DNA of 64,000 bases from Thermoanaerobaculia bacterium. GTDB lineage: Bacteria; Acidobacteriota; Thermoanaerobaculia; Multivoradales; JAIOJS01. Position numbers and translations under genes: made by a program. Location: the NCBI GenBank assembly GCA_030429235.1, contig JAUIDB010000010.1:13334-77333 (forward strand), in the 5' to 3' direction. Below, one piece after another: positions 1-47,627 of the stretch (the stretch's first letter is position 1; each line of letters starts with the position of its first letter). Below the pieces are notes generated by a model that was given only the letters and a program-made list of their open reading frames with translations, was not told the origin of the DNA and made no database searches.

Positions 1-920
1 GCTACTTGGGCCATCTGCTGGTAGGAGGGTCGGTCCGCGACGTCGAACTAGCCAATGGCCACGCCTACCTGGCAGGCAGCGGAGGCTTTACGGTATTGGA
101 TACTTCGTCACCGTGGATGCCAACTGTGTCTGCGAGGTTTGAAACCCAGGGCCGAGCCCTTGATGTCTCGTTGGATTCTGGATTGGCCTATGTTTCCGTC
201 GATGGTCCCGAGGGCCTGTTGATTTATGACTTGGGAGACCCAGGAGTCCCGGTGCTGCTCGGTTCACTTGCGTCGGCATCCGCAGCCGAAGAGGTTTCCG
301 TTAGGGGCGGCTATGCGTTCTTGGCATCACCCTTTCTTGATCTGAAGATCGTTGATATCAGCGTTCCGTCAGCGCCAATCGAAGTTGCTTCGGTAGTAGC
401 CGGGGCCTCCCAGACGACCGCCCTCAATGGCGACTACGCCTATAGCGCCGGTTCTCAACTGGCGGTCATCGATGTCTCCGTTCCGTCCAACCCGGTGGTT
501 CTGGCCTCTCAGGGGTTGCCCTTCTCAATAAGCGACTCTGCAGTTCGCAATGGGGTGCTCTACTTCTCCTCTTCCGGCCTGCGCGTTTTTGACACTGTCG
601 ATCCTCTTTCTCCGAACCAAATCGGATTGCTGTCTCTGGCGGGAGGTTCTTCCCACGATTTGGTCCTCGAGGCCGACCTCGTCTACCTGGCTGCCGGCCT
701 AGGTGGTGTTCGGGTAGTAGATGTTTCTGCGCCCACGGCACCTCGGCAAGTAGCGTATCGCGGTACCTCGTACGCTCGTGGAATTGCGGTTGGTGGTGAT
801 CGGGTTGCTGTAGCCAAGGACGGGCAAGGTCTGTCGATTCTGCAAGGCTGCGCAGGGCTGCTTTTTGCCGATGGTTTTGAGTCCGGGGATACCGTGGCCT
901 GGCCCCAGAGTAGTCCGTAG
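1..920 (+). CDS. Secreted LVIVD-repeat beta-propeller protein, 5' partial at the window edge. It carries the C-terminal FADGFESGDTVAW tail.
   Basis: The reading frame is open from nt 3 (TTG at 6 in the track). Repeats of the type LVYLAAGLGGVRVVDVS, FTVLDTS and LAVIDVS are typical of LVIVD repeats. The last 20 aa are LLFADGFESGDTVAWPQSSP. Confidence 0.6.
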   Translation, partial: YLGHLLVGGSVRDVELANGHAYLAGSGGFTVLDTSSPWMPTVSARFETQGRALDVSLDSGLAYVSVDGPEGLLIYDLGDPGVPVLLGSLASASAAEEVSVRGGYAFLASPFLDLKIVDISVPSAPIEVASVVAGASQTTALNGDYAYSAGSQLAVIDVSVPSNPVVLASQGLPFSISDSAVRNGVLYFSSSGLRVFDTVDPLSPNQIGLLSLAGGSSHDLVLEADLVYLAAGLGGVRVVDVSAPTAPRQVAYRGTSYARGIAVGGDRVAVAKDGQGLSILQGCAGLLFADGFESGDTVAWPQSSP

Positions 921-14029: not shown

Positions 14030-16819
14030 ATGAGGAACAACGGCAGGGTGCAATCTCGACGCCGGTTCCTTCACAGATTGGGGATTGCGTGGGCGCTGGC
14101 TGGACTGCTCGCCAGTGCGACCGGACTCAGGGCGGGTGAGTCGGCGCCTGCGGCGATGGCGGCTGATCTCGGCGAGATTCCAGGGTGGACGTTTCTCGAT
14201 GCGGCGCCCGGGGGCTTTCAGGAACTCGACGGGATCGTCTACTTCTTTGCGCATGACGGTGTTCACGGGCAGGAACTCTGGCGAACCGATCTGACGGAGG
14301 CCGGTACCTGGATGGTCGAGGACATCTGTCCTGGCTTCTGTCACGGCATGACCAATGGCCCGCCGATGGTTCAGAGCGGTGGGGCGCTGTATTTCTTCGC
14401 CGACGACGGGGGGTCCGGGGGGGAGCTGTGGACTTCGCGAGGTACGGCCGAGACAACTCGGATCGTTCGGGACTTGCAGGCCGGCCCGGCCTCCTCCGCT
14501 TGTGGTCAGTTGATCGAGTTCGGAGGCCAGGTCGTGTTCGGTGCTGACGACGGCATCCATGGCTGCGAACTCTGGGTCAAACCCTCTTCGTGGGCGGGAG
14601 TCCAGCTGCTGGTCGATGCAGTTCCCGGCGCCGACTCCGGGTTCTCGTCCGGTTATCGCCGTCTCTTTCCGCTCGACGATCAGCTTCTCTTCTGGTCGCA
14701 GGACTCTCTCTGGACGACGGACGGTACTCCGGCTGGAACCGAGAAGGTCACCGAGGTCGTGGCGAACCTCGACGTGCCTTGGTTTCACGACAACGGCCCA
14801 CGGGCCTTCGACGGCAGGTTGTTTTTTCAAGGCTGGGACGCAGTACATGGCTGGGAACTGTGGGCCACCGACGGAACCGCAGCGGGTACGGGTCTGGTTG
14901 CGGACCTGGTCGCCGGTAGCGGCAGCAGTTCTCCGGACGACTTCGTGGTGCACGCCAGCCAACTCTGGTTCGCAGCCCGGGGCGAGGACCAGGACGGGGA
15001 ACTGTGGCGGAGCGATGGGACCTCGACGGGTACTGCGTTTGTCGCCGATGCGGACTGGGGTCCCCTGGGGAGTACCCCCGCTGGCGTCCTCTACGTGGTG
15101 CACAACGGAGTCCAGAGCGAGCTAAGGATCGCCGACGGGAGTCAGGTGAACACACTGGTCAGCGTAGAGGATGTTTACTTCTACTTCCTCTATCCTCGTC
15201 GACAGCTCGATGGTGGGGTCTTCCTGGCGCTGAACGCGGGGCAAACCGGTCCGGAGCCCTGGATCTCCGAAGGCACTCCCGAGACCACGCGGCTTCTCGC
15301 CGACATCTACCAGGGCGAGGAGGGTTCCATGTTCCTTCCTCTGGACACCGCAATCCAGCTCTCGACGGGAGAGATCCTGTTCAAGGCCTATTCCCCCGAG
15401 ATCGACTACTCGCCCTGGGTCAGCGATCAGACGACGGCTGGCACCCGCCGAATCAAGCGGATCGACGATCAAGTTTCGGCCGGGTATCCGGGACGACGAC
15501 TCCTCTATTCCAGCTTGGCCCCGATCGGACCACGATGCCTGACGAGTCGATACTCTCTGGAGTACAACCGCGAGGAGGCGTGGTCCTCGGCCGGAGACCC
15601 AGCGACGGTGGCTAGGATTCCCGTCCACCAGGGGCCTGGCGCCACGGTGCTTCAGGCAGATCCCGGACCTACTCCTGCCACTCGTTCCCGCGCCATTTTG
15701 AGAGTCCACGGGGAAGAGGGACCCAGCCTGTGGGGCACGGACGGTACGGTTCAGGGAACCGAGGAGATCACCGCGGCTTTCGGTGCGACGAGTCTGGGGC
15801 TCGAACGTTTCGTGGCGACTCCAGATCGCGTCTGGATCCAGAACCACGATCGGGTCTGGAGTACCGATGGAACCCTGGCCGGAACGGTGTGGGTTCCCTC
15901 CTGGAACCAGGTCAGAGACGCTGCCGTCGTCTCTGGCCGCACCTACCTGGCGCTCGGCAACAGCGGGACCGGAGTAGAACTCTGGCTTCAGCACCAAGGG
16001 GCAGCCCCGGTTCCGGTTCGCGACATCGAGCCAGGACCCGATAGTTCCACGCCATCGTGGCTGACGACCGGTTCCGAACCGAACCTCGGGGTCTTCTTCT
16101 TTGCCAGTACTACAGAGACTGGTCGCGAGCCCTGGTTCTCGGATGGAACTGCGGAGGGAACCTACCCGCTCGGGGACATCTTTCCTGGCGAGGAAGACTC
16201 TCGCGAGTTGACTGAGGAGCCCAATTCCGGCGGGGCCGTGGGGGCCTTCCTGGGGTCGACGCTCGTGTTCGCGGCCGATGACGGAGTCCACGGCAACGAA
16301 CTGTGGGCTTCGGATGGGAGTCCCGAGAGTGCGACTCTGCTTCTCGACCTCGTGCCGGGCAACGTGGGAAGCGAACCCGCTTGGTTTACCACCTTCGAGG
16401 ATCGGGTCTACTTCGTGGCCTCCACTCTGGAGCACGGACGAGAGCTCTGGCGGACCGACGGCACTCCGGAAGGCACCGAGATCGTGTTGGATCTGTTCCC
16501 GGGACGGCGTTCCGCTCTGCCCCACGATCTCTTGGTACGTGGTGACACTCTCTTCCTGGTCGCCGCCGACCCCGCCCACGGTTCCGAATTGTGGAGGCTC
16601 GACTCCGAGGGCCTCGAACTGCACCAGGACATCAATCCAGGGCCCGACTCGTCGTCACCGAGCTGGCTGGCGCTCGGTCAAGATCGACTCTGGTTCATGG
16701 CGACGGACGGTGTTCACGGGTTTGAACTCTGGAGCCTTCCGTTTGGGCTACTCTTTGCAGACGGCTTCGAATCTGGGGACGTCACCGCCTGGGGAGAAGC
16801 CGGGTCGGTCGTTCGCTAG
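14030..16819 (+). CDS. Large secreted ELWxxDGT-repeat beta-propeller protein with a Tat-like signal and the C-terminal FADGFESGDVTAW tail.
   Basis: N-terminal SRRRFLHRLG has twin-arginine character. There are 12 or more repeats such as ELWRTDGTPEGT, ELWATDGTAAGT and EPWFSDGTAEGT. The last 23 aa are LLFADGFESGDVTAWGEAGSVVR. Confidence 0.8.
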   Translation: MRNNGRVQSRRRFLHRLGIAWALAGLLASATGLRAGESAPAAMAADLGEIPGWTFLDAAPGGFQELDGIVYFFAHDGVHGQELWRTDLTEAGTWMVEDICPGFCHGMTNGPPMVQSGGALYFFADDGGSGGELWTSRGTAETTRIVRDLQAGPASSACGQLIEFGGQVVFGADDGIHGCELWVKPSSWAGVQLLVDAVPGADSGFSSGYRRLFPLDDQLLFWSQDSLWTTDGTPAGTEKVTEVVANLDVPWFHDNGPRAFDGRLFFQGWDAVHGWELWATDGTAAGTGLVADLVAGSGSSSPDDFVVHASQLWFAARGEDQDGELWRSDGTSTGTAFVADADWGPLGSTPAGVLYVVHNGVQSELRIADGSQVNTLVSVEDVYFYFLYPRRQLDGGVFLALNAGQTGPEPWISEGTPETTRLLADIYQGEEGSMFLPLDTAIQLSTGEILFKAYSPEIDYSPWVSDQTTAGTRRIKRIDDQVSAGYPGRRLLYSSLAPIGPRCLTSRYSLEYNREEAWSSAGDPATVARIPVHQGPGATVLQADPGPTPATRSRAILRVHGEEGPSLWGTDGTVQGTEEITAAFGATSLGLERFVATPDRVWIQNHDRVWSTDGTLAGTVWVPSWNQVRDAAVVSGRTYLALGNSGTGVELWLQHQGAAPVPVRDIEPGPDSSTPSWLTTGSEPNLGVFFFASTTETGREPWFSDGTAEGTYPLGDIFPGEEDSRELTEEPNSGGAVGAFLGSTLVFAADDGVHGNELWASDGSPESATLLLDLVPGNVGSEPAWFTTFEDRVYFVASTLEHGRELWRTDGTPEGTEIVLDLFPGRRSALPHDLLVRGDTLFLVAADPAHGSELWRLDSEGLELHQDINPGPDSSSPSWLALGQDRLWFMATDGVHGFELWSLPFGLLFADGFESGDVTAWGEAGSVVR

Positions 16820-30064: not shown

Positions 30065-32230
30065 GTGAGTACACCACGCCTCGTCTTGCTCGGCAGCCTT
30101 GCCGTCCTCCTCCTCACCACTCCGGCGCTGATGGCTGGGGTCATCACCGTCGACACCGCCCTCGGCACGCGAGTGGACGACATGGGCGATGGCCCCTGCT
30201 CCTTCAAGGAGGCCCTGGCGAATGCCTTCGGGTCGATGCAGCAGTTCGACGATTGCGAGGACCCCGGGATGGCGCCCCACACCATCGTGTTCACGGGGGC
30301 CTTCGTGATCAATATGGACGATACCGGCTCGATCGCGAACGTGGTGAACGAACTGACCATTCAGGGGCCGGTGGTTTTGGACGGAAACAATCAGATGCAC
30401 GGGGGATTCCTCCTCGATGCGGCCAGTTCGGCCATCCTCACCGTCAACCAGGTGACGTTTCAGGACAACGGCGCGAGCGCGATCAACGTGCGGGACAGCG
30501 CCACGCTGACGGTGAACGCGAGCGTCTTCGACAACAACCAGGCCAACAACGGAGGCGCGATCCAGGCCGGAGGTAGCGGTTCGGTGACGGTCAATCTGTC
30601 GAACTTCACCCGCAACGATGCCACCTTCTTCGGCGGGGCGATCTTCAAGGGCAATGGGTGCGAACTGTTCGTCAGCGGCTCCAACTTCGGCGGACCGATG
30701 CTCGGTAACGAGGCCGACCAGGGGGGAGCGATCTACATCGCGGGCGCGGCCACCGGCGAAGGGGTGGTGATCACGGGATCGACGTTCCTCGGGAACTCCT
30801 CCGACGGCACCGATACCAACGACGGGGGTGGGGCGATCTACATCCAGGGCGCGGGGAACGGCTCCTACATCTCGATCTTCGGCGGTGCTTTCGGCTCCTC
30901 GGTGCCGCTGACCGGTAACAGTGCGATGAGCCGCGGTGGAGCGATCTACAACAACGCCACCTCGGGGCTGGTGAACAGCGACCCCACCGACATTCTCGAC
31001 GCGGGGATCATCGGCGTGGAGTTCGTGGGCAACAGCGCCGGTGATCGGGGCGGAGCGATCTACAACCGCGGGTCGATGAATGTCTTCCACGCTACCTTCG
31101 ATGGCAACAGTGCCGTCGGCGGGGGAGCGGTGGCCGACGACCAGCAGATTTCGGGCCGGGAGTTGACGATCTCGAACTCGACCTTCAATGGCAACAGCGC
31201 TTCGGGTGACGGGGGAGGACTCGGCAGCTTCGACTCCGACTCCAACGTGATCCTGCGGAATGTCACCCTCGCTGGGAACAGCGCTTCGACGAGTGGCCGC
31301 GAACTCTTCGCGACCGGCGACATCGACCTTGGCAACGTGCTGATCGCCAACGGGTCGGCCGGCGCCAACTGCGCCGGGGGCGGGACCTTCGTCGACTCGA
31401 TGGGCAACTTGCAGTGGGATCCGACCATGGACACCGGCTGTGGAGCGGCGATCCCCGTGGCTGATCCTCTGCTCGCGGCGCTGACCTTGAATCCGGGGCC
31501 GATCCCGGTCCGCACCATGGCCCTCGGAGCGGGGAGTCCGGCGCTGGGAGCCGGTGTACCGGCGATCTGTTCGGCCCTGCCGGTCTTCATGCTCGACGCT
31601 CGCGGGGTGCCGCGCCCTACCGCCTGTGATAGCGGAGCCTTCGAAGGTGGCGATGCGGCCCGGCTGGTCATCAACGAGATCGACTACGACCAGGGAGGGA
31701 CCGACGATCACGAGTTCATCGAGATCTACAACGGCGGTGCGGCCTCGATCAACCTCGACAACGTCAGTCTGGAGTTGGTGGACGGCAACATGGGGACGGC
31801 GAGTCTGTACGCGCCGTCGCCGATCGACCTGCCCAACGCCGACCTTGGTCCGGGCGAGTACTACGTCGTGTGTGGTCAGACCGGTCTCGGGATTCCGCTG
31901 ATCAACTGCGACCTCGACCTCGCGACCGACGATTTCCTGCAGGACGGCGATCCGGATGCAATCGGACTGCGGCTTTCGGGGCTTCTGATCGACGCCGTGA
32001 GCTACGGTGGCGCCGATACCGGGGCGCCCTACACCGAGACCGCGGGTGCCGGCGACGACCCCGGTGGTACTCCGTTCCTCGGCCTCTCGCGGTTGCCCGA
32101 TGGCGCCGACAGCGATGACAACTCGGCCGACTTTTCGAGCCGTTGTGCCACGCCGAAGGAGGCCAACGTGCCGGACGCGACGTCCTGTTCGATGGTCCCC
32201 GTGGAACTGCTCGGTTTCTCGGTCGAGTAG
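30065..32230 (+). CDS. Secreted right-handed beta-helix protein (PMP/GGAIY-type repeats, CSLREA-like N-terminal motif) with a C-terminal lamin tail domain (LTD), ending in PVELLGFSVE.
   Basis: AGGAG RBS and a GTG start. Signal peptide. GPCSFKEALANA resembles CSLREA. There are 10 or more GGAIY/GGAI repeats. The LTD reads LVINEIDYDQGGTDDHEFIEIYNGG...VSLELVDG. Confidence 0.8.
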   Translation: MSTPRLVLLGSLAVLLLTTPALMAGVITVDTALGTRVDDMGDGPCSFKEALANAFGSMQQFDDCEDPGMAPHTIVFTGAFVINMDDTGSIANVVNELTIQGPVVLDGNNQMHGGFLLDAASSAILTVNQVTFQDNGASAINVRDSATLTVNASVFDNNQANNGGAIQAGGSGSVTVNLSNFTRNDATFFGGAIFKGNGCELFVSGSNFGGPMLGNEADQGGAIYIAGAATGEGVVITGSTFLGNSSDGTDTNDGGGAIYIQGAGNGSYISIFGGAFGSSVPLTGNSAMSRGGAIYNNATSGLVNSDPTDILDAGIIGVEFVGNSAGDRGGAIYNRGSMNVFHATFDGNSAVGGGAVADDQQISGRELTISNSTFNGNSASGDGGGLGSFDSDSNVILRNVTLAGNSASTSGRELFATGDIDLGNVLIANGSAGANCAGGGTFVDSMGNLQWDPTMDTGCGAAIPVADPLLAALTLNPGPIPVRTMALGAGSPALGAGVPAICSALPVFMLDARGVPRPTACDSGAFEGGDAARLVINEIDYDQGGTDDHEFIEIYNGGAASINLDNVSLELVDGNMGTASLYAPSPIDLPNADLGPGEYYVVCGQTGLGIPLINCDLDLATDDFLQDGDPDAIGLRLSGLLIDAVSYGGADTGAPYTETAGAGDDPGGTPFLGLSRLPDGADSDDNSADFSSRCATPKEANVPDATSCSMVPVELLGFSVE

Positions 32231-36020: not shown

Positions 36021-37448
36021 ATGCTCTATCGTTTGTTTCGTAGAATGTTTCTCGCTCTGGTCTCGATCTCGCTCCTCGCTGCCGGCGCGTCGGCGAGCAC
36101 CCATCGAGGCCCGACCGTCGTCCCGACCGCGGAGGGTCAGATCGGGGAGACACCCGGGGTGGACGACCGGATCCTGGGGCCCCGCTTCGAGTCGATCCGA
36201 GGCCAGGCCGGCGAGGTCCTGTTGGGGAGCAGCGTGCTCTTCGGAGGGGTGATGCCGCCGCCGCCGGCCTTCGACTTCCTGACGGATCGGCTGCACGGCG
36301 CCAGCAATCCGGTACCGATCACCAGTGCCACGAGCTCCTTCCTGACGGTGCCGATGCAGTCTCCGGCCTCGGATCGGCGGCGCGCGGCCAGTGGGCTCGG
36401 TGACTTCGTGGCCTTCAGTTTCGCCGTCGACGGCTCATTGCCCCAGACGATGACGGTTCGGATCGCCACCTTCGACGAAGACGGGACGACGCTGGCCTCG
36501 GTGCCGGTGGCGGTCGATGTCCCGACGTTCAGCGTTCCGGACCCCTTGTTCACCAAGACCGGCGTAGCGGTCGACGACCAGGGTCGGGCTACCGTCGTCT
36601 TCACCCAATTCGACTCCGGGATTCCTACGGTGCGCGGTCAGCGGGTGAGTGTAGTGACGGGAGCCCCGATCGGTGGGTCGTTCCCGATCGGACCCGCGGC
36701 TCAGGCGAACCCTGACGTCGCTCTGCTCGATCCGGCGGGCGATCGACTGATCGTGGCCTCCAACCGCTTCACCAATCCCCCGGTGCTGGTCGGCAATATC
36801 GTCGACTTCTCCTCGGGCAGCCCCGTGGTCTTGCCGGAGTTCACGATCCCCAATACCCCGGCCAGTTTCGGCAACTTACTCACCGATGTTGCCGCAGACC
36901 CGGCCACCGGTACCTCCACCGTGGTCTGGGATCAGTTGACCGGCGTGCTCGGCAACCCGGCCGACGTGCGCGCCCGGCGCTTCGACGCCATGGGCAACCC
37001 CATCGGTGGCGACTTCCAGGTCAACACGCTCGATGCCAACGCGCAGGGCCAGGCGGCGGTGGCCTACGGACCGAACGGCAACTCGGCCATCATCTGGGCG
37101 GGAGATCCCGCCGCACCGCAGGGTCCCGAGGATCTCGACGTGTTCGGCCAGGCCTACGACGCCGACGGCAATCCGATCGGCGGCGAGGTGCCGGTGAACA
37201 CGTTCACGACCAACACCCAGGACCGGCCGACGGTTCGGTTTCTACCAGAGCCGGACGCGCAGGGTCGGTCCCAGTTCGCCGTCGCCTGGCGCGACACCGG
37301 GGACTCCACGGGGGCAACTCCGCGCGGCACCGGTCAGAGCTACCGCTGCTTCTCGATCGAAGGTCTGGAGGATCCTACGGAGATCTTCGCCGACGGCTTC
37401 GAGTCCGGGGACACGACATCATGGTCCGAGACGCAGCCCGGGTCATAG
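36021..37448 (+). CDS. Secreted hypothetical protein carrying the C-terminal FADGFESGDTTSW tail.
   Basis: AAGGA RBS. Signal peptide MLYRLFRRMFLALVSISLLAAGASA. The last 21 aa are IFADGFESGDTTSWSETQPGS. Confidence 0.65.
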   Translation: MLYRLFRRMFLALVSISLLAAGASASTHRGPTVVPTAEGQIGETPGVDDRILGPRFESIRGQAGEVLLGSSVLFGGVMPPPPAFDFLTDRLHGASNPVPITSATSSFLTVPMQSPASDRRRAASGLGDFVAFSFAVDGSLPQTMTVRIATFDEDGTTLASVPVAVDVPTFSVPDPLFTKTGVAVDDQGRATVVFTQFDSGIPTVRGQRVSVVTGAPIGGSFPIGPAAQANPDVALLDPAGDRLIVASNRFTNPPVLVGNIVDFSSGSPVVLPEFTIPNTPASFGNLLTDVAADPATGTSTVVWDQLTGVLGNPADVRARRFDAMGNPIGGDFQVNTLDANAQGQAAVAYGPNGNSAIIWAGDPAAPQGPEDLDVFGQAYDADGNPIGGEVPVNTFTTNTQDRPTVRFLPEPDAQGRSQFAVAWRDTGDSTGATPRGTGQSYRCFSIEGLEDPTEIFADGFESGDTTSWSETQPGS

Positions 37449-40803: not shown

Positions 40804-42336
40804 CTACTGCTTCCCTCGATCCAGGTAGGCCAACCGCAAGGAGACCACGCCCCATGGGCTGCGGAACGACAGACCGCTGCTGACCTCGAACCCCCGTTCG
40901 AAGTCGGGCGCAGCGGGAGAACCGGCGAACGAACTGCCGTCGAACAGGGTCAGGGCCTGGGTCCAACGCAGTTCCCGGCTCCCGTGCCGACGGCTGGAGT
41001 GTAGGAGTAGGCTGTGTTGGAGCGAAGCCTGCAGTCGCCACACCGTCGAACGACTCGATCCGAGGCCCAGTCCCGAAGGCGCGACGTCGTCCACCTTGCG
41101 TTCTCCGGCCAGGATCCGACCGGAGACACCCAGCGACTGCCGGGCACCGAACGAGCGGTGGAGTTCCCCTCCCAGTGAGAGGCCGAGCAGGGACGAGTCC
41201 ATCTCCGCCAGCGGGGTCGTGGAGTCGAGGAAGGAGCGAATCGGGCCGAGCCGCGCGGTCAGGTGCTGCCACTCGATTCCCGCCTGCAAGCGGGCCCCGT
41301 CGGTGGGGAAGAGGGGGTCGTCGACCGAGTCGAATCGCCACGCCAACTCCAGCCGCTGGTCCTCACGGTCCTCGAAGCCCAGGGTGCTCTCGACCACCGG
41401 AGCGACGGCGGACCGACGGATCCCGGAATCGCTCCGCCGCGCTTCACCGCGGAGGAGCAGGGAGTGGTTGCGCCGCAGGGGGACTCCAAGGTCGAGCCGG
41501 AACCGGGTCGTGCGTTCGCCGGCGCTCCAGGTCGAGGCCGTCGGGTCGAGGACGTCGTGGAGCTGAGTACGGCACTCACTGCCGGCCGCCGGGACCGCGT
41601 CGTGGCCGATGGCCGACTCGAGAGAATCCACGATCTGCTGCCGCACGTCCTCGCAGTGCACGGTCGAGACGCTGAGGGTGGCCAGGCCCCCGCGGCCGAA
41701 AGGGTCGTAGCGGCTGACCCCCGCGGTGAGTTCGCCATCCCCACTGACGACGCCGAACGCGACGAGGCTCGGGCCGAGAGCGAAACGCCGACCGGCGAAC
41801 AGGGTCGTTCCGTCGACCCGATCGGTGGTGGCCAGCCCGTCGACCGAGACGTCGTGGGCCCACCAGGTGGCCTCGGAATACAGGCCGAAGACCCACCTTC
41901 GGACCTCTTCGACCCGAATCTGCAGGTGGTACAGACCGCGGGAGGAACCCTTCTCGAGCGAGAACTCGGCGTCCAGGACCAGGGGGAGCCGGACGATGCG
42001 GGCCATGGCCTGGCCGAGCTGCGACTCGCTGTAGGCGTGGCCCTCCTCCAACTGTGCCGTGTTGAGGAGGCTGGTCGTCGACAGCAGGGAGATGCCGTCG
42101 ACGGCGATCGTCTCGATCGCGAACCGAGGGCCCTCCGGGGGCGGCGGGGGCGAGGCGGCGTGCGTGGCCGGCGGGGGAGGCTGGGCGCGTCCCGTGGAGG
42201 GGCCCACCGCGGATCCCAGGAGGAGAGCGAGGCCGATCAGGACGACCGGCCGCCTCCAGCTTCCGCGGAGCCGGTTGCGGTGTGGCGGAGCGGGCCGCGG
42301 GATTCCCTGCACAAGGCCTGGTCGTCGGGTTCTCAT
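40804..42336 (-). CDS. POTRA-domain outer-membrane beta-barrel protein (TpsB/ShlB or BamA-like).
   Basis: Signal peptide. POTRA-like IAVDGISLLSTTSLLNTAQLEEGHAYSESQLGQAMARIVRL. Alternating beta-strand pattern through the C-terminus. Confidence 0.6.
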   Translation of the reverse strand: MRTRRPGLVQGIPRPAPPHRNRLRGSWRRPVVLIGLALLLGSAVGPSTGRAQPPPPATHAASPPPPPEGPRFAIETIAVDGISLLSTTSLLNTAQLEEGHAYSESQLGQAMARIVRLPLVLDAEFSLEKGSSRGLYHLQIRVEEVRRWVFGLYSEATWWAHDVSVDGLATTDRVDGTTLFAGRRFALGPSLVAFGVVSGDGELTAGVSRYDPFGRGGLATLSVSTVHCEDVRQQIVDSLESAIGHDAVPAAGSECRTQLHDVLDPTASTWSAGERTTRFRLDLGVPLRRNHSLLLRGEARRSDSGIRRSAVAPVVESTLGFEDREDQRLELAWRFDSVDDPLFPTDGARLQAGIEWQHLTARLGPIRSFLDSTTPLAEMDSSLLGLSLGGELHRSFGARQSLGVSGRILAGERKVDDVAPSGLGLGSSRSTVWRLQASLQHSLLLHSSRRHGSRELRWTQALTLFDGSSFAGSPAAPDFERGFEVSSGLSFRSPWGVVSLRLAYLDRGKQ

Positions 42337-42412: not shown

Positions 42413-43060
42413 CTAGAAGCGGTACCCGAGTCCGAGACTCAGGGAGTCGAAGTCGATGTCGACGGTTCCGTAGTCGACCAGCAGGTCGAGGCGGGGCGTC
42501 AGGTCGACGCGAGCGCCGGCACCGAGGAGTAGCTCGCTTCCAGTCAGCCGACCGAGGTACCCGAAGGTCGGTTGCACCGCCGAGATACGCTCTTCGTAAT
42601 AGCCCAGACCAACCCGTCCGAAGAGCGTAGTGCGGCCGAAATGGGTCTGCGGCACGAAGGCAAAGGTGAACAGTTCGAGGTCGGCCTCGACTTTGGCCAG
42701 CAGTTCGATGCAGAGAACCAGGGGGCCGGGAAAGCAGGCGGAACCCCAGCCCTCGAGATCATCGGCCCTTTGGTAGCCAACCTCGATGGCGAGGTTGCGG
42801 TGCAGTTCGAACCCGAAGACGACGGCTGGGGAGACCGCCTCGTTGTCGAAGTCCCAAGCGTGTAGGCCTTCGTAGGTGCGGTCGAAGGCCGCCAGTCCGC
42901 CCTTGAAGTCGACGTAGAAACGTTCCTCGGCCGCGCTTGGCGCCGCCAGGGCGAAGAGCACGCAGAGCCAGGCGAGGCCGGGAAGGAGCCTTCGAGACGT
43001 CGCAGGGGACCGGCGGGTCGTGGGGGCTGGGAGGTGGTTGCGGAGGAGGGAATGGTGCAT
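42413..43060 (-). CDS. Small outer-membrane beta-barrel protein (OmpA-like / OMP_b-brl).
   Basis: AGGAGA RBS. Signal peptide LAWLCVLFALAAPSAA. Alternating amphipathic strands. Ends ...GLGYRF with a C-terminal Phe. Confidence 0.7.
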   Translation of the reverse strand: MHHSLLRNHLPAPTTRRSPATSRRLLPGLAWLCVLFALAAPSAAEERFYVDFKGGLAAFDRTYEGLHAWDFDNEAVSPAVVFGFELHRNLAIEVGYQRADDLEGWGSACFPGPLVLCIELLAKVEADLELFTFAFVPQTHFGRTTLFGRVGLGYYEERISAVQPTFGYLGRLTGSELLLGAGARVDLTPRLDLLVDYGTVDIDFDSLSLGLGYRF

Positions 43061-43103
43061 GGTGTCTCCTGGTCGGTGGAAAGGGTTCGATGCCTCTGAC
43101 GAC

Positions 43104-43119
43104 AGCAATGACCTTGCCA
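43104..43119 (-). promoter_or_regulatory. Sigma54 -24/-12 promoter TGGCAA-N5-TTGCT heading the OMP -> POTRA-OMP -> DUF4390 -> HK -> NtrC operon.
   Basis: The minus strand reads tTGGCAAggtcaTTGCTg with exact GG-N10-GC spacing. It lies about 45 nt upstream of the ATG at 43060. Confidence 0.4.
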
Positions 43120-43309
43120 ACCTCGGGGGCGGAGGGCTCGGGTGGAGCGATCCTGGCCGATCCGAAGGTTGAGAAGAATCGGGGCCGGTCGGCGCCTCGT
43201 GTCCGAGAGGGGCGAGTCGTTCGTAGCCACCGACGGTGGTGTCTGGGAAACCAGACGGTTCCGCACCATGGAGCCCCGGTCACTGCCCGTTGGAAACGGA
43301 GGAATCGTC

Positions 43310-46385: not shown

Positions 46386-47627
46386 ATGCACCGAGCACTT
46401 GTTCTCTCCGGAGCGTTCCTGGTTTCGTCGTTCCAGCCCATCTGCGCCGACAGCTACGTCGTCGATACCGAGGCCGACGTCATGGCGACCGGCTGCTCGG
46501 ACATCGTGGTAGGCGACTGTAGCCTGCGCGGTGCGATCCAAAGGGCGAACCAGAATCCCGGGCTCGACGTGATCACCTTCGGCTTCGGGGTGGCCGACGT
46601 TGCGCTGGGAATCGTCGGTTCCTACGAGGATGACAATCAGCAGGGCGATCTGGACATCCTGGAGGAGGTAGTGATCAACGGCGGCGACGTGGTGACGATC
46701 GACGGCAGTCTGATCGGTGATCGAGTGTTCGACGTGATGACCAGCACGACCGTCGAACCGACGATCCTTCAGGGGCTCACAGTGACGGGCGGAGCGGCGC
46801 CGTCGGGAGACTCTCTCTTCGACGGTGGCGGCGTCCGCTGTGACTCTTCTCGGCTCCACCTCGAAGCCGTGGTGCTCGCCGGCAACGGTCCGGTCCGCAA
46901 TGGGGGAGGAGTGTTTGCCCTGTCGTGCGACCTCTCGGTCGTCACTTCCACCCTCGACCACAACACGGCGACCGGTCTGGGAGGTGGACTGCACTTCGAG
47001 TCCGGATCGGATCTTTCGATAGCCCACGTCGCCTTCGTGGCCAACGTCGCCAGCTCGGGGGGTGGGTTGCAAGTGCACTCGGCGAGCGCCACCGTCGAGA
47101 ACACGACCTTCAGCGGCAACGACGCCGACAACGATGGGAGTGCGTTGCAAGTTGCGTTCGGCGAGTTGGAACTGGGCTTCGTGACCGTGGTCGGAGGGAC
47201 CGGCAACAACACTCTGTCCAACGCCGCGTCGGTGGTTTCGACCGTGGCCAACTCGGTGATCGTCGGTACCTGTCAGGGGACCTTCACGACCGAGGGTGGC
47301 AATCTCGAAGCGCCCGGCGACACCTGCGGACTCGACCCTCTCGTCGACCAGTTCTCCGTCGCCGATGCCCTCCTGCAGCCGCTGGGCTTCTACGGGGGGC
47401 GGACGCCCTCCCATGCTCCGCGCTGGGACAGTCCCGCGGTTGACGATCCTCTCGGCGTCATCGCCGACTGTCCCACGGTCGATCAGCGCCTCCAGCCTCG
47501 ACCCGTCGATGGCAACGGGGATAGCATCGTCGGGTGTGATGCCGGCGCCGTCGAAGCGGACGAACTGATCTTCGCCGACGGATTCGAGTCGGGCGACACC
47601 CTCGCCTGGGGGGTTGCCAGCCAGTAG
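46386..47627 (+). CDS. Secreted parallel beta-helix protein with an N-terminal CSLREA-type motif and the C-terminal FADGFESGDTLAW tail.
   Basis: GAGGAGG RBS. Signal peptide. CSLRGAIQRAN. GGG.. beta-helix rungs. The last 20 aa are LIFADGFESGDTLAWGVASQ. Confidence 0.75.
   Translation: MHRALVLSGAFLVSSFQPICADSYVVDTEADVMATGCSDIVVGDCSLRGAIQRANQNPGLDVITFGFGVADVALGIVGSYEDDNQQGDLDILEEVVINGGDVVTIDGSLIGDRVFDVMTSTTVEPTILQGLTVTGGAAPSGDSLFDGGGVRCDSSRLHLEAVVLAGNGPVRNGGGVFALSCDLSVVTSTLDHNTATGLGGGLHFESGSDLSIAHVAFVANVASSGGGLQVHSASATVENTTFSGNDADNDGSALQVAFGELELGFVTVVGGTGNNTLSNAASVVSTVANSVIVGTCQGTFTTEGGNLEAPGDTCGLDPLVDQFSVADALLQPLGFYGGRTPSHAPRWDSPAVDDPLGVIADCPTVDQRLQPRPVDGNGDSIVGCDAGAVEADELIFADGFESGDTLAWGVASQ

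Follow-up and report, generated by a model that had tools for sequence, protein, structure and literature searches.

A recurrent FADGFESGD-type C-terminal tail on unrelated exported proteins of Acidobacteriota and its likeness to the leader of ConA-like domains

We identify a self-contained peptide module of ~19 residues, [ILV]-F-x-D-G-F-E-[ST]-G-[DN]-x-x-x-W-S-x-x-V-P, at the C-terminus of unrelated proteins, above all in Acidobacteriota. The tail is modular and flexible, is under purifying selection, occurs in multiple copies per genome and is carried by exported proteins. Judged by sequence, a class of ConA-like domains has this motif as its conserved leader, and the tails of Acidobacteriota appear to be orphan leaders. 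We propose that the tail is an address or retention tag on exported proteins that is recognised in trans, a reading to which we assign even odds (probability about 0.5).

Four tails in a 64-kb window

The window, by which we mean the whole 64-kb stretch of DNA analysed, contains exactly four copies of the pattern [LI]FADGFESGD..[AS]W in a six-frame regular-expression scan. All lie on the + strand, each 13–22 residues before a stop codon, and they close the following genes:

3..920, + strand: cargo 1, LVIVD-repeat beta-propeller protein (PF08309), 5' end cut by the window edge
861..917, stop 918-920, + strand: tail copy 1, LFADGFESGDTVAWPQSSP (translation, regular expression, degenerate DNA pattern)
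14030..16819, + strand: cargo 2, ELWxxDGT-repeat protein, 929 aa (TIGR04534 at 1.3e-155, 15 repeats)
16751..16816, stop 16817-16819, + strand: tail copy 2, LFADGFESGDVTAWGEAGSVVR (translation, regular expression, degenerate DNA pattern)
36021..37448, + strand: cargo 3, 475-aa signal-peptide protein with FQVNT-type repeats, no family match
37383..37445, stop 37446-37448, + strand: tail copy 3, IFADGFESGDTTSWSETQPGS (translation, regular expression, degenerate DNA pattern)
46386..47627, + strand: cargo 4 (P0121), CSLREA / choice-of-anchor Q right-handed beta-helix protein, 413 aa
47568..47624, stop 47625-47627, + strand: tail copy 4, IFADGFESGDTLAWGVASQ (translation, regular expression, degenerate DNA pattern, AlphaFold pLDDT)

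In translation, proteins 1–4 end in LLFADGFESGDTVAWPQSSP, LLFADGFESGDVTAWGEAGSVVR, IFADGFESGDTTSWSETQPGS and LIFADGFESGDTLAWGVASQ, each directly followed by the stop codon. An earlier note on this DNA had claimed that four differently built secreted proteins share one C-terminal motif, and both the translation and the six-frame scan confirm this. It placed the tails correctly, but its nucleotide ranges take in the stop codon and skip the first listed residue, an offset of one codon. The annotations it gave to the protein bodies (LVIVD, ELWxxDGT, signal-peptide hypothetical, CSLREA beta-helix) hold by Pfam and NCBIfam. Cargo 1 matches PF08309 at 1.1e-27 with 5 repeats and has a weak choice-of-anchor B match in NCBIfam, and cargo 4 matches choice-of-anchor Q (NF041518) at 44.6 bits against a cut-off of 25, its CSLREA match being sub-threshold. 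The pre-tail sequence of cargo 3, judged by eye, resembles the largest cargo cluster of other genomes. A signal peptide is present in all three complete window cargos. At 14030-14150 (+) cargo 2 has a twin-arginine-like signal, SRRRFLHRLG (QSRRRFLHRLG...), and at least one tail-bearing protein, this ELWxxDGT cargo, may be exported folded via Tat.

Searched with a degenerate DNA pattern for FADGFESGD, the window yields 4 matches, where 100 dinucleotide-preserving shuffles lead one to expect 0.00. When the segments are aligned, codon positions 1 and 2 are identical in all four copies and third positions vary. Because the differences fall at third codon positions only, the conservation lies at the protein level, as the earlier note had argued from synonymous differences, and a DNA repeat or mobile cassette was rejected. 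After the Trp, the tails run on for 5–9 mostly polar residues (endings PQSSP, GEAGSVVR, SETQPGS and GVASQ; last residues P, R, S and Q) with no hydrophobic helix and no basic cluster, and these endings depart from the canonical SxxVP described below. All four tails stop with TAG, which also closes 12 of 30 other genes of the genome; at 107 C-terminal tails elsewhere, among the matches listed, the stops are TGA 52, TAG 43 and TAA 12, a background-like usage. Stop-codon recoding or readthrough at TAG was rejected, since stop usage is ordinary and no coherent in-frame sequence lies downstream.

The gene content around the tails is that of an ordinary chromosome (regulators, sulfatases, esterases, peptidases and an Omp85-like/OMP pair), and no secretion operon was found in the 64-kb window. 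Other exported window proteins, namely a VWA protein, an M28 peptidase, an OMP barrel and an Omp85-like protein, end without the tail, which therefore marks a subset of exported proteins. The 510-aa Omp85-superfamily protein (40804-42336, -) adjoins the OMP beta-barrel gene (42413-43120, -), and the two lie between two tail-bearing genes; Omp85-like genes are not among the families recurring near tails in the 117 loci listed, and we find no evidence of a link. Separately, a protein with Chlam_PMP repeats and a lamin-tail domain (window 30065-32230, +) ends in VPVELLGFSVE-stop, and one in a Holophagae MAG (L101, ORF end ~1604, - strand) in VPVELMSFSVE-stop. VPVEL..FSVE-stop is another short C-terminal motif that recurs in these genomes, and it may be a further orphan strand.

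Distribution, cargo and the slot after choice-of-anchor domains

Recurrence beyond the window, which the earlier note had set as a test of its reading, is extensive, with many copies per genome and in relatives. A degenerate DNA scan of species-representative genomes gave at least 117 loci, several from one genome; individual MAGs hold at least 4–7 exact-pattern loci each and, among the matches listed, 27 of the 117 8-kb loci hold at least two tail genes. Going by their record titles, about three-quarters of the listed loci belong to Acidobacteriota (Thermoanaerobaculia including Ca. Multivoradales, Holophagae, Sulfomarinibacteraceae and Bryobacterales). The few listed loci outside this phylum come from a Polyangiaceae MAG, a deltaproteobacterial MAG, one Gemmatimonadota MAG and the cultured gammaproteobacterium Marinicella litoralis. 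When 1.84 billion cluster representatives were searched exhaustively with a profile, 7,062 proteins scored E<=1e-3. What the tail profile matched in a word-indexed search was for the most part short fragments of genes, which contributed little.

Among the matches listed, 107 of 119 in-frame copies reach a stop within 55 residues, and 61 copies have exactly 18 residues from F to stop, as FADGFESGDxxxWSxxVP. The modal C-terminal form of these matches is [ILV]FADGFESGDTSAWSxxVP-stop, and the logo of their tails reads [ILV]-FADGFESGD-[TAVL]-[ST]-A-W-S-x-x-V-P. P, G and S are enriched at positions -2 to -5 of the tail, and further upstream there is no conservation; an upstream cysteine enrichment found no support in position-wise counts. 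A tail HMM run on the same loci found 29 further variants, of the form F-[STRCM]-DGFE-[ST]-G-[DN]. Seven residues (F, D, G, F, E, G and W) show little or no variation, even in variants outside the search pattern.

A short form also exists. In Tahibacter amnicola (CP104694.1) the tail stops right after GFE/GFD (...FDRVFADGFE-stop; L121:10001-11509 and L121:795-2066), an adjoining FG-GAP protein ends in ...RDRIFADGWGMRWPDQP-stop, and the GFE/GFD ending is seen again in P0159, P0169, P0190 and P0207. The core [ILV]F-x-DGF[ED], present in this cultured Xanthomonadales strain, may be the essential part of the tail.

The bearers are diverse. Among the matches listed, BLAST sorts 91 cargo bodies into 50 unrelated clusters, and 50 representatives from the listed loci match 46 Pfam families, among them FG-GAP, Peptidase_S8, Beta_helix, CarboxypepD_reg, LPMO_10, M14, M23, GH8, RCC1, GSDH, GEVED and LVIVD. 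These families are typical of extracellular enzymes and surface proteins. Signal peptides, for which the earlier note had proposed an enrichment test, begin 59 of 74 complete cargo ORFs in the listed loci, as scored by a hydrophobicity heuristic rather than a trained predictor, in addition to the three of three complete window cargos. In two RHS/YD-repeat toxin-like Acidobacteriota proteins (L076, L103) the motif lies inside the chain, upstream of the C-terminal region.

Protein 4 allows a closer view of the tail in its context. An AlphaFold2 model built on a 44-sequence alignment gives its body as a beta-helix with pLDDT ~97 up to about residue 390; residues 391-413 fall to pLDDT 63/54/46 and lie off the beta-helix body. 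Tail residues F396, D398 and G399 are among the columns conserved at 90% or more in orthologues of 30-54% identity. Across 120 homologues, a conserved choice-of-anchor Q end, ...DQRGxxRPxDGDGDGxxxCDxGAxE, is followed by one of five endings. These are the FADGFESGD-type tail, in most Acidobacteria; the shorter tail stopping after GFE/GFD, for example in Tahibacter amnicola P0162; the motif with a hydrophobic helix and an Arg cluster (P0155, P0158, P0210); a Cys-containing GGCSLIRR-type ending after myxo-type Cys-rich repeats (P0187, P0199, P0173); and [YF][LV]PL[IV]x[KR], in Chloroflexi-type members. The alternative anchors were recognised by reading and correspond to no named model; NCBIfam confirmed choice-of-anchor Q on the anchor-bearing homologues, with a weak rhombotarget A resemblance, and left their tails unnamed. 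Aligned in this way, the tail occupies the position at which homologues have what read as membrane-anchor sorting tails. The Chloroflexi-type ending precedes the stop without a full transmembrane helix in P0176, P0186, P0188, P0197, P0201, P0204 (Chloroflexus sp.), P0227 and P0233, and it may be another uncatalogued C-terminal tag.

The motif as leader of ConA-like jelly-roll domains

In 12 of the 117 loci, among the matches listed, a further 100-560 residues come after the motif. Proteins from Anaerolineae, a Vicinamibacteria MAG and others have it exactly 18 residues before a conserved DxGDLSV, at the head of a ~190-residue domain ending ...yFDaFESRR. This long-form family has 597 hits, mostly in Chloroflexota, and Pro/Thr linkers usually precede the motif. 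The AlphaFold model of the domain is a jelly roll at pLDDT 83-96, and its Foldseek neighbours, PL7/PL18 alginate lyases, TtX122 and botulinum Hc domains, have the ConA-like fold. The family (L029, L066, L095, L109, L012; P0241-P0360) is itself abundant and C-terminal, has no above-threshold Pfam or NCBIfam model, and finds its closest solved folds in the PL7/PL18 lyases and TtX122. In other phyla, such as Chloroflexota and Actinomycetota, the motif leads such domains in proteins that number thousands. There it lies within the chain, frequently more than once: the top matches of the exhaustive search have 2-5 internal copies, each heading a ConA-like repeat (for example P0361-P0366, P0373, P0376 and P0412, and L024 from Nocardioidaceae).

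Pfam matches the long-form domain to PF14099 (Polysacc_lyase) below its cut-off, with model position 1 aligning to the F of GFE in P0365, and the leader F-x-D-G-F-E-S-G-x-L-S-x-W-S is homologous in sequence to the N-terminal edge of that ConA-like family. The tail lines up collinearly with the opening ~17 residues of the long-form domain (IFADGFESGxLSAWSSxx, then DGGDLSV...), and the 15-residue leader accounts for 5 of the 16 columns that are invariant in the 207-residue domain. Unlike PF14099-like domains, the window copies and most Acidobacteriota copies end 5-9 residues after the Trp, with no ~190-residue core: the long-domain HMM matches tail proteins at positions 1-17 only, and the window proteins stop after the leader. 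Since the motif heads ConA-like domains elsewhere, the Acidobacteriota tails are best read as orphaned domain leaders, and the tail sequence as belonging to a partly catalogued domain edge. The earlier note had named membership of a globular domain as a finding that would speak against a detachable tail; such membership holds for relatives in other phyla but not for the four window copies, which no domain follows. A downstream ConA-like ORF joined to the tail by a frameshift was also considered and rejected, as the long-domain HMM finds none near tails.

Arrangements other than a single tail or a complete domain occur as well. Bare units of ~21 residues stand in tandem pairs at the C-termini of P0370, P0375, P0381, P0392 and P0460, two units precede the subtilase domain of P0367 and P0374, and one canonical unit directly follows the signal peptide of P0440. 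Intermediate forms are seen in L106 (tail and partial jelly roll) and L112 (tail and LamG). In P0378, P0388 and P0415 a ~70-residue segment ending ...DDLQFF lies between a motif copy and a canonical tail, as a mini-domain between two copies.

Known sorting systems, candidate readings and significance

We compared the tail with known systems using the attributes of C-terminal sorting domains given by Haft as a yardstick (bioRxiv 10.1101/2023.06.07.544157). It shows attributes 1, 2, 3, 6 and 7, that is, location, multiplicity, signature motif, signal peptide and unrelated bearers, and lacks the transmembrane segment and the basic cluster. Like LPXTG/sortase, PEP-CTERM/exosortase, GlyGly-CTERM/rhombosortase and MYXO-CTERM/myxosortase, it is C-terminal, present in many copies per genome and marked by an invariant motif; like these tripartite sorting domains, it is found on otherwise unrelated bearers with a signal peptide and in the same slot after choice-of-anchor domains. 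Unlike them, it has neither transmembrane helix nor Arg cluster, and its motif also occurs internally. The absence of both elements excludes an intramembrane or membrane-associated sorting protease as the tail's reader, and with it a working like that of sortase, exosortase, rhombosortase or myxosortase substrates, which leaves recognition as a soluble peptide as the one remaining route.

The T9SS CTD is a folded beta-sandwich of ~70-100 residues found in Bacteroidota and relatives. Both the tail and this Por secretion tail are C-terminal signals of a non-membrane type, carried by hydrolases and surface proteins that diderms export, with a similar cargo range, but the tail differs in its length of ~19 residues, its predicted flexibility (pLDDT 46-63), its occurrence mainly in Acidobacteriota and the absence of any TIGR04183/TIGR04131-type match. 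It also differs from the beta-signal of outer-membrane proteins, a terminal F or W closing a barrel strand, in that the window tails end in P, R, S or Q and the cargos are soluble folds. The tail is a member of neither the tripartite sorting-domain class nor the T9SS CTD class. The earlier note was right to set aside PEP-CTERM, LPXTG and T9SS types, and right that no named C-terminal sorting family fits: the HMM search of the tails that it proposed gave no match in Pfam or NCBIfam (release 20) at E<=1-10, and the motif strings occur in no paper of the searchable literature. By its sequence features the tail would belong to the general kind of modular C-terminal tags of exported bacterial proteins, with a function that we infer.

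We propose the following course of events. By descent, the tail would be the segment that leads PF14099-like ConA-type jelly-roll domains at their N-terminus. Acidobacteriota, above all Thermoanaerobaculia and Holophagae, would keep it without the domain at the extreme C-terminus of many unrelated exported enzymes and surface-repeat proteins, with scattered carriers of the orphan leader in Polyangia, Gemmatimonadota and Gammaproteobacteria. Cargo would be exported via Sec or Tat to the periplasm first. The tail would then bind a putative partner in trans, and through this binding the cargo would be directed across the outer face of the cell envelope or retained on it. The tail would be read as a soluble peptide, perhaps by adding a beta-strand to a receptor domain.

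A trans-recognised tag fits best with the combination of modularity, flexibility, purifying selection, multiplicity, exported bearers and the anchor slot. Internal, tandem and N-terminal copies disfavour mechanisms that need a free C-terminus and make a position-tolerant recognition peptide likelier. The earlier note's interpretation stands as to an autonomous protein-level C-terminal element on unrelated signal-peptide proteins, while the degron that it also entertained, like any signal dependent on a free carboxylate, has become less likely. Given the internal, tandem, pre-subtilase and post-signal-peptide copies, the motif may also have a function unrelated to sorting. As to a reader, the earlier note had postulated a sorting enzyme or outer-membrane system. 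No cognate sorting enzyme, protease, receptor or outer-membrane system was found in the window or in the 117 loci listed; clustering of all ORFs of those loci yielded no conserved non-cargo neighbour beyond Ser/Thr kinases and response regulators, and the Marinicella and Tahibacter tail neighbourhoods contain no pointer to a sorting gene.

The leader ancestry of the tail suggests strand addition to a ConA-like receptor. The orphan leader would complete or bind the groove of a leaderless ConA-like receptor in the envelope and tether the cargo non-covalently. Hundreds of exported enzymes in each Acidobacteriota genome would then carry a natural docking tag of the split-domain kind, which would insert into a dedicated envelope receptor or translocon or be captured by it; a leaderless ConA-like domain or an outer-membrane protein is a possible receptor. 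Donor-strand complementation in chaperone-usher and type V pili, an engineered split-domain tag and dockerin-cohesin pairing offer a conceptual analogy only, that of a short terminal element docking on a common receptor; there is no sequence relation. Collinearity with the domain, the alignment of PF14099 position 1 inside the motif, the share of invariant columns in the leader and the resemblance of the domain's last strand (yFDaFESRR) to the leader all speak for such docking. Against it, the long-domain HMM detects no leaderless acceptor in the window or in ~0.9-1 Mb of related loci, and two apparent cases, P0249 and P0266, are assembly artefacts, produced by a gap in the scaffold or by a frameshift where coverage is low. 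AlphaFold, moreover, leaves the leader unplaced in the jelly roll even in cis (pLDDT 32, residues 1-11), so that its strand nature is only putative, and no solved structure containing the motif was found. We therefore hold this version to be possible though doubtful. An acidic Trp hairpin that binds a non-protein ligand, such as Ca2+-bridged LPS or exopolysaccharide, would need no protein receptor. Tandem units of ~21 residues are what one expects of repeats that bind through avidity, the three acidic residues and the Trp do not vary among the tails, and Foldseek places the parent domain in a carbohydrate-active fold; yet one 19-residue peptide is small for specific glycan binding, we found no structural or experimental precedent, and the conservation of the leader ahead of complete domains is left unexplained, which makes this an unlikely account.

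Homology to the domain leader and the intermediate forms L106 and L112 could instead mean that the tails are leftovers of truncated C-terminal ConA-like domains with little or no function. We consider this quite unlikely in view of one truncation point and one SxxVP ending across at least 50 unrelated families, conservation despite synonymous change, the tail's place among the best-conserved columns of protein 4 orthologues, and thousands of copies with tandem duplications. A C-terminal degron or protease signal, read by a PDZ-type periplasmic protease for turnover or maturation, would suit a flexible tail at the extreme C-terminus with a fairly conserved V-P ending. It is very unlikely, as the copies away from the C-terminus show that a free carboxylate can be dispensed with, the endings differ from tail to tail (many stop at W, some already at GFE), and the 117 loci listed tie no protease to the tails. 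Many cargos are beta-propellers or beta-helices, and the tail could be their last strand; this integral structural cap is the most improbable of the readings, for cargos also include subtilases, LPMO, GH8, M14 and M23 proteins, AlphaFold leaves the protein 4 tail unpacked at low confidence, and upstream of the tails the sequence shows no conservation and an abundance of P, G and S.

Acidobacteriota rank with the most abundant bacteria of soils and sediments, and to our knowledge little is known of how their large arsenals of hydrolases and surface proteins are delivered. The existence of a leader of ConA-like domains independently of its domain is unusual and absent from Pfam and NCBIfam. Cultured carriers, with the canonical tail in Marinicella litoralis and the short form in Tahibacter amnicola, make experiments feasible, and if the tail is portable it could serve as a small tag for display or secretion engineering. 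Should split-domain docking prove true, it would constitute a new route of surface display or secretion without a membrane-anchored sorting signal. A short recognisable tag on thousands of exported proteins would mark the surface and secreted proteome of these bacteria from sequence and would give a handle for finding the machinery that reads it.
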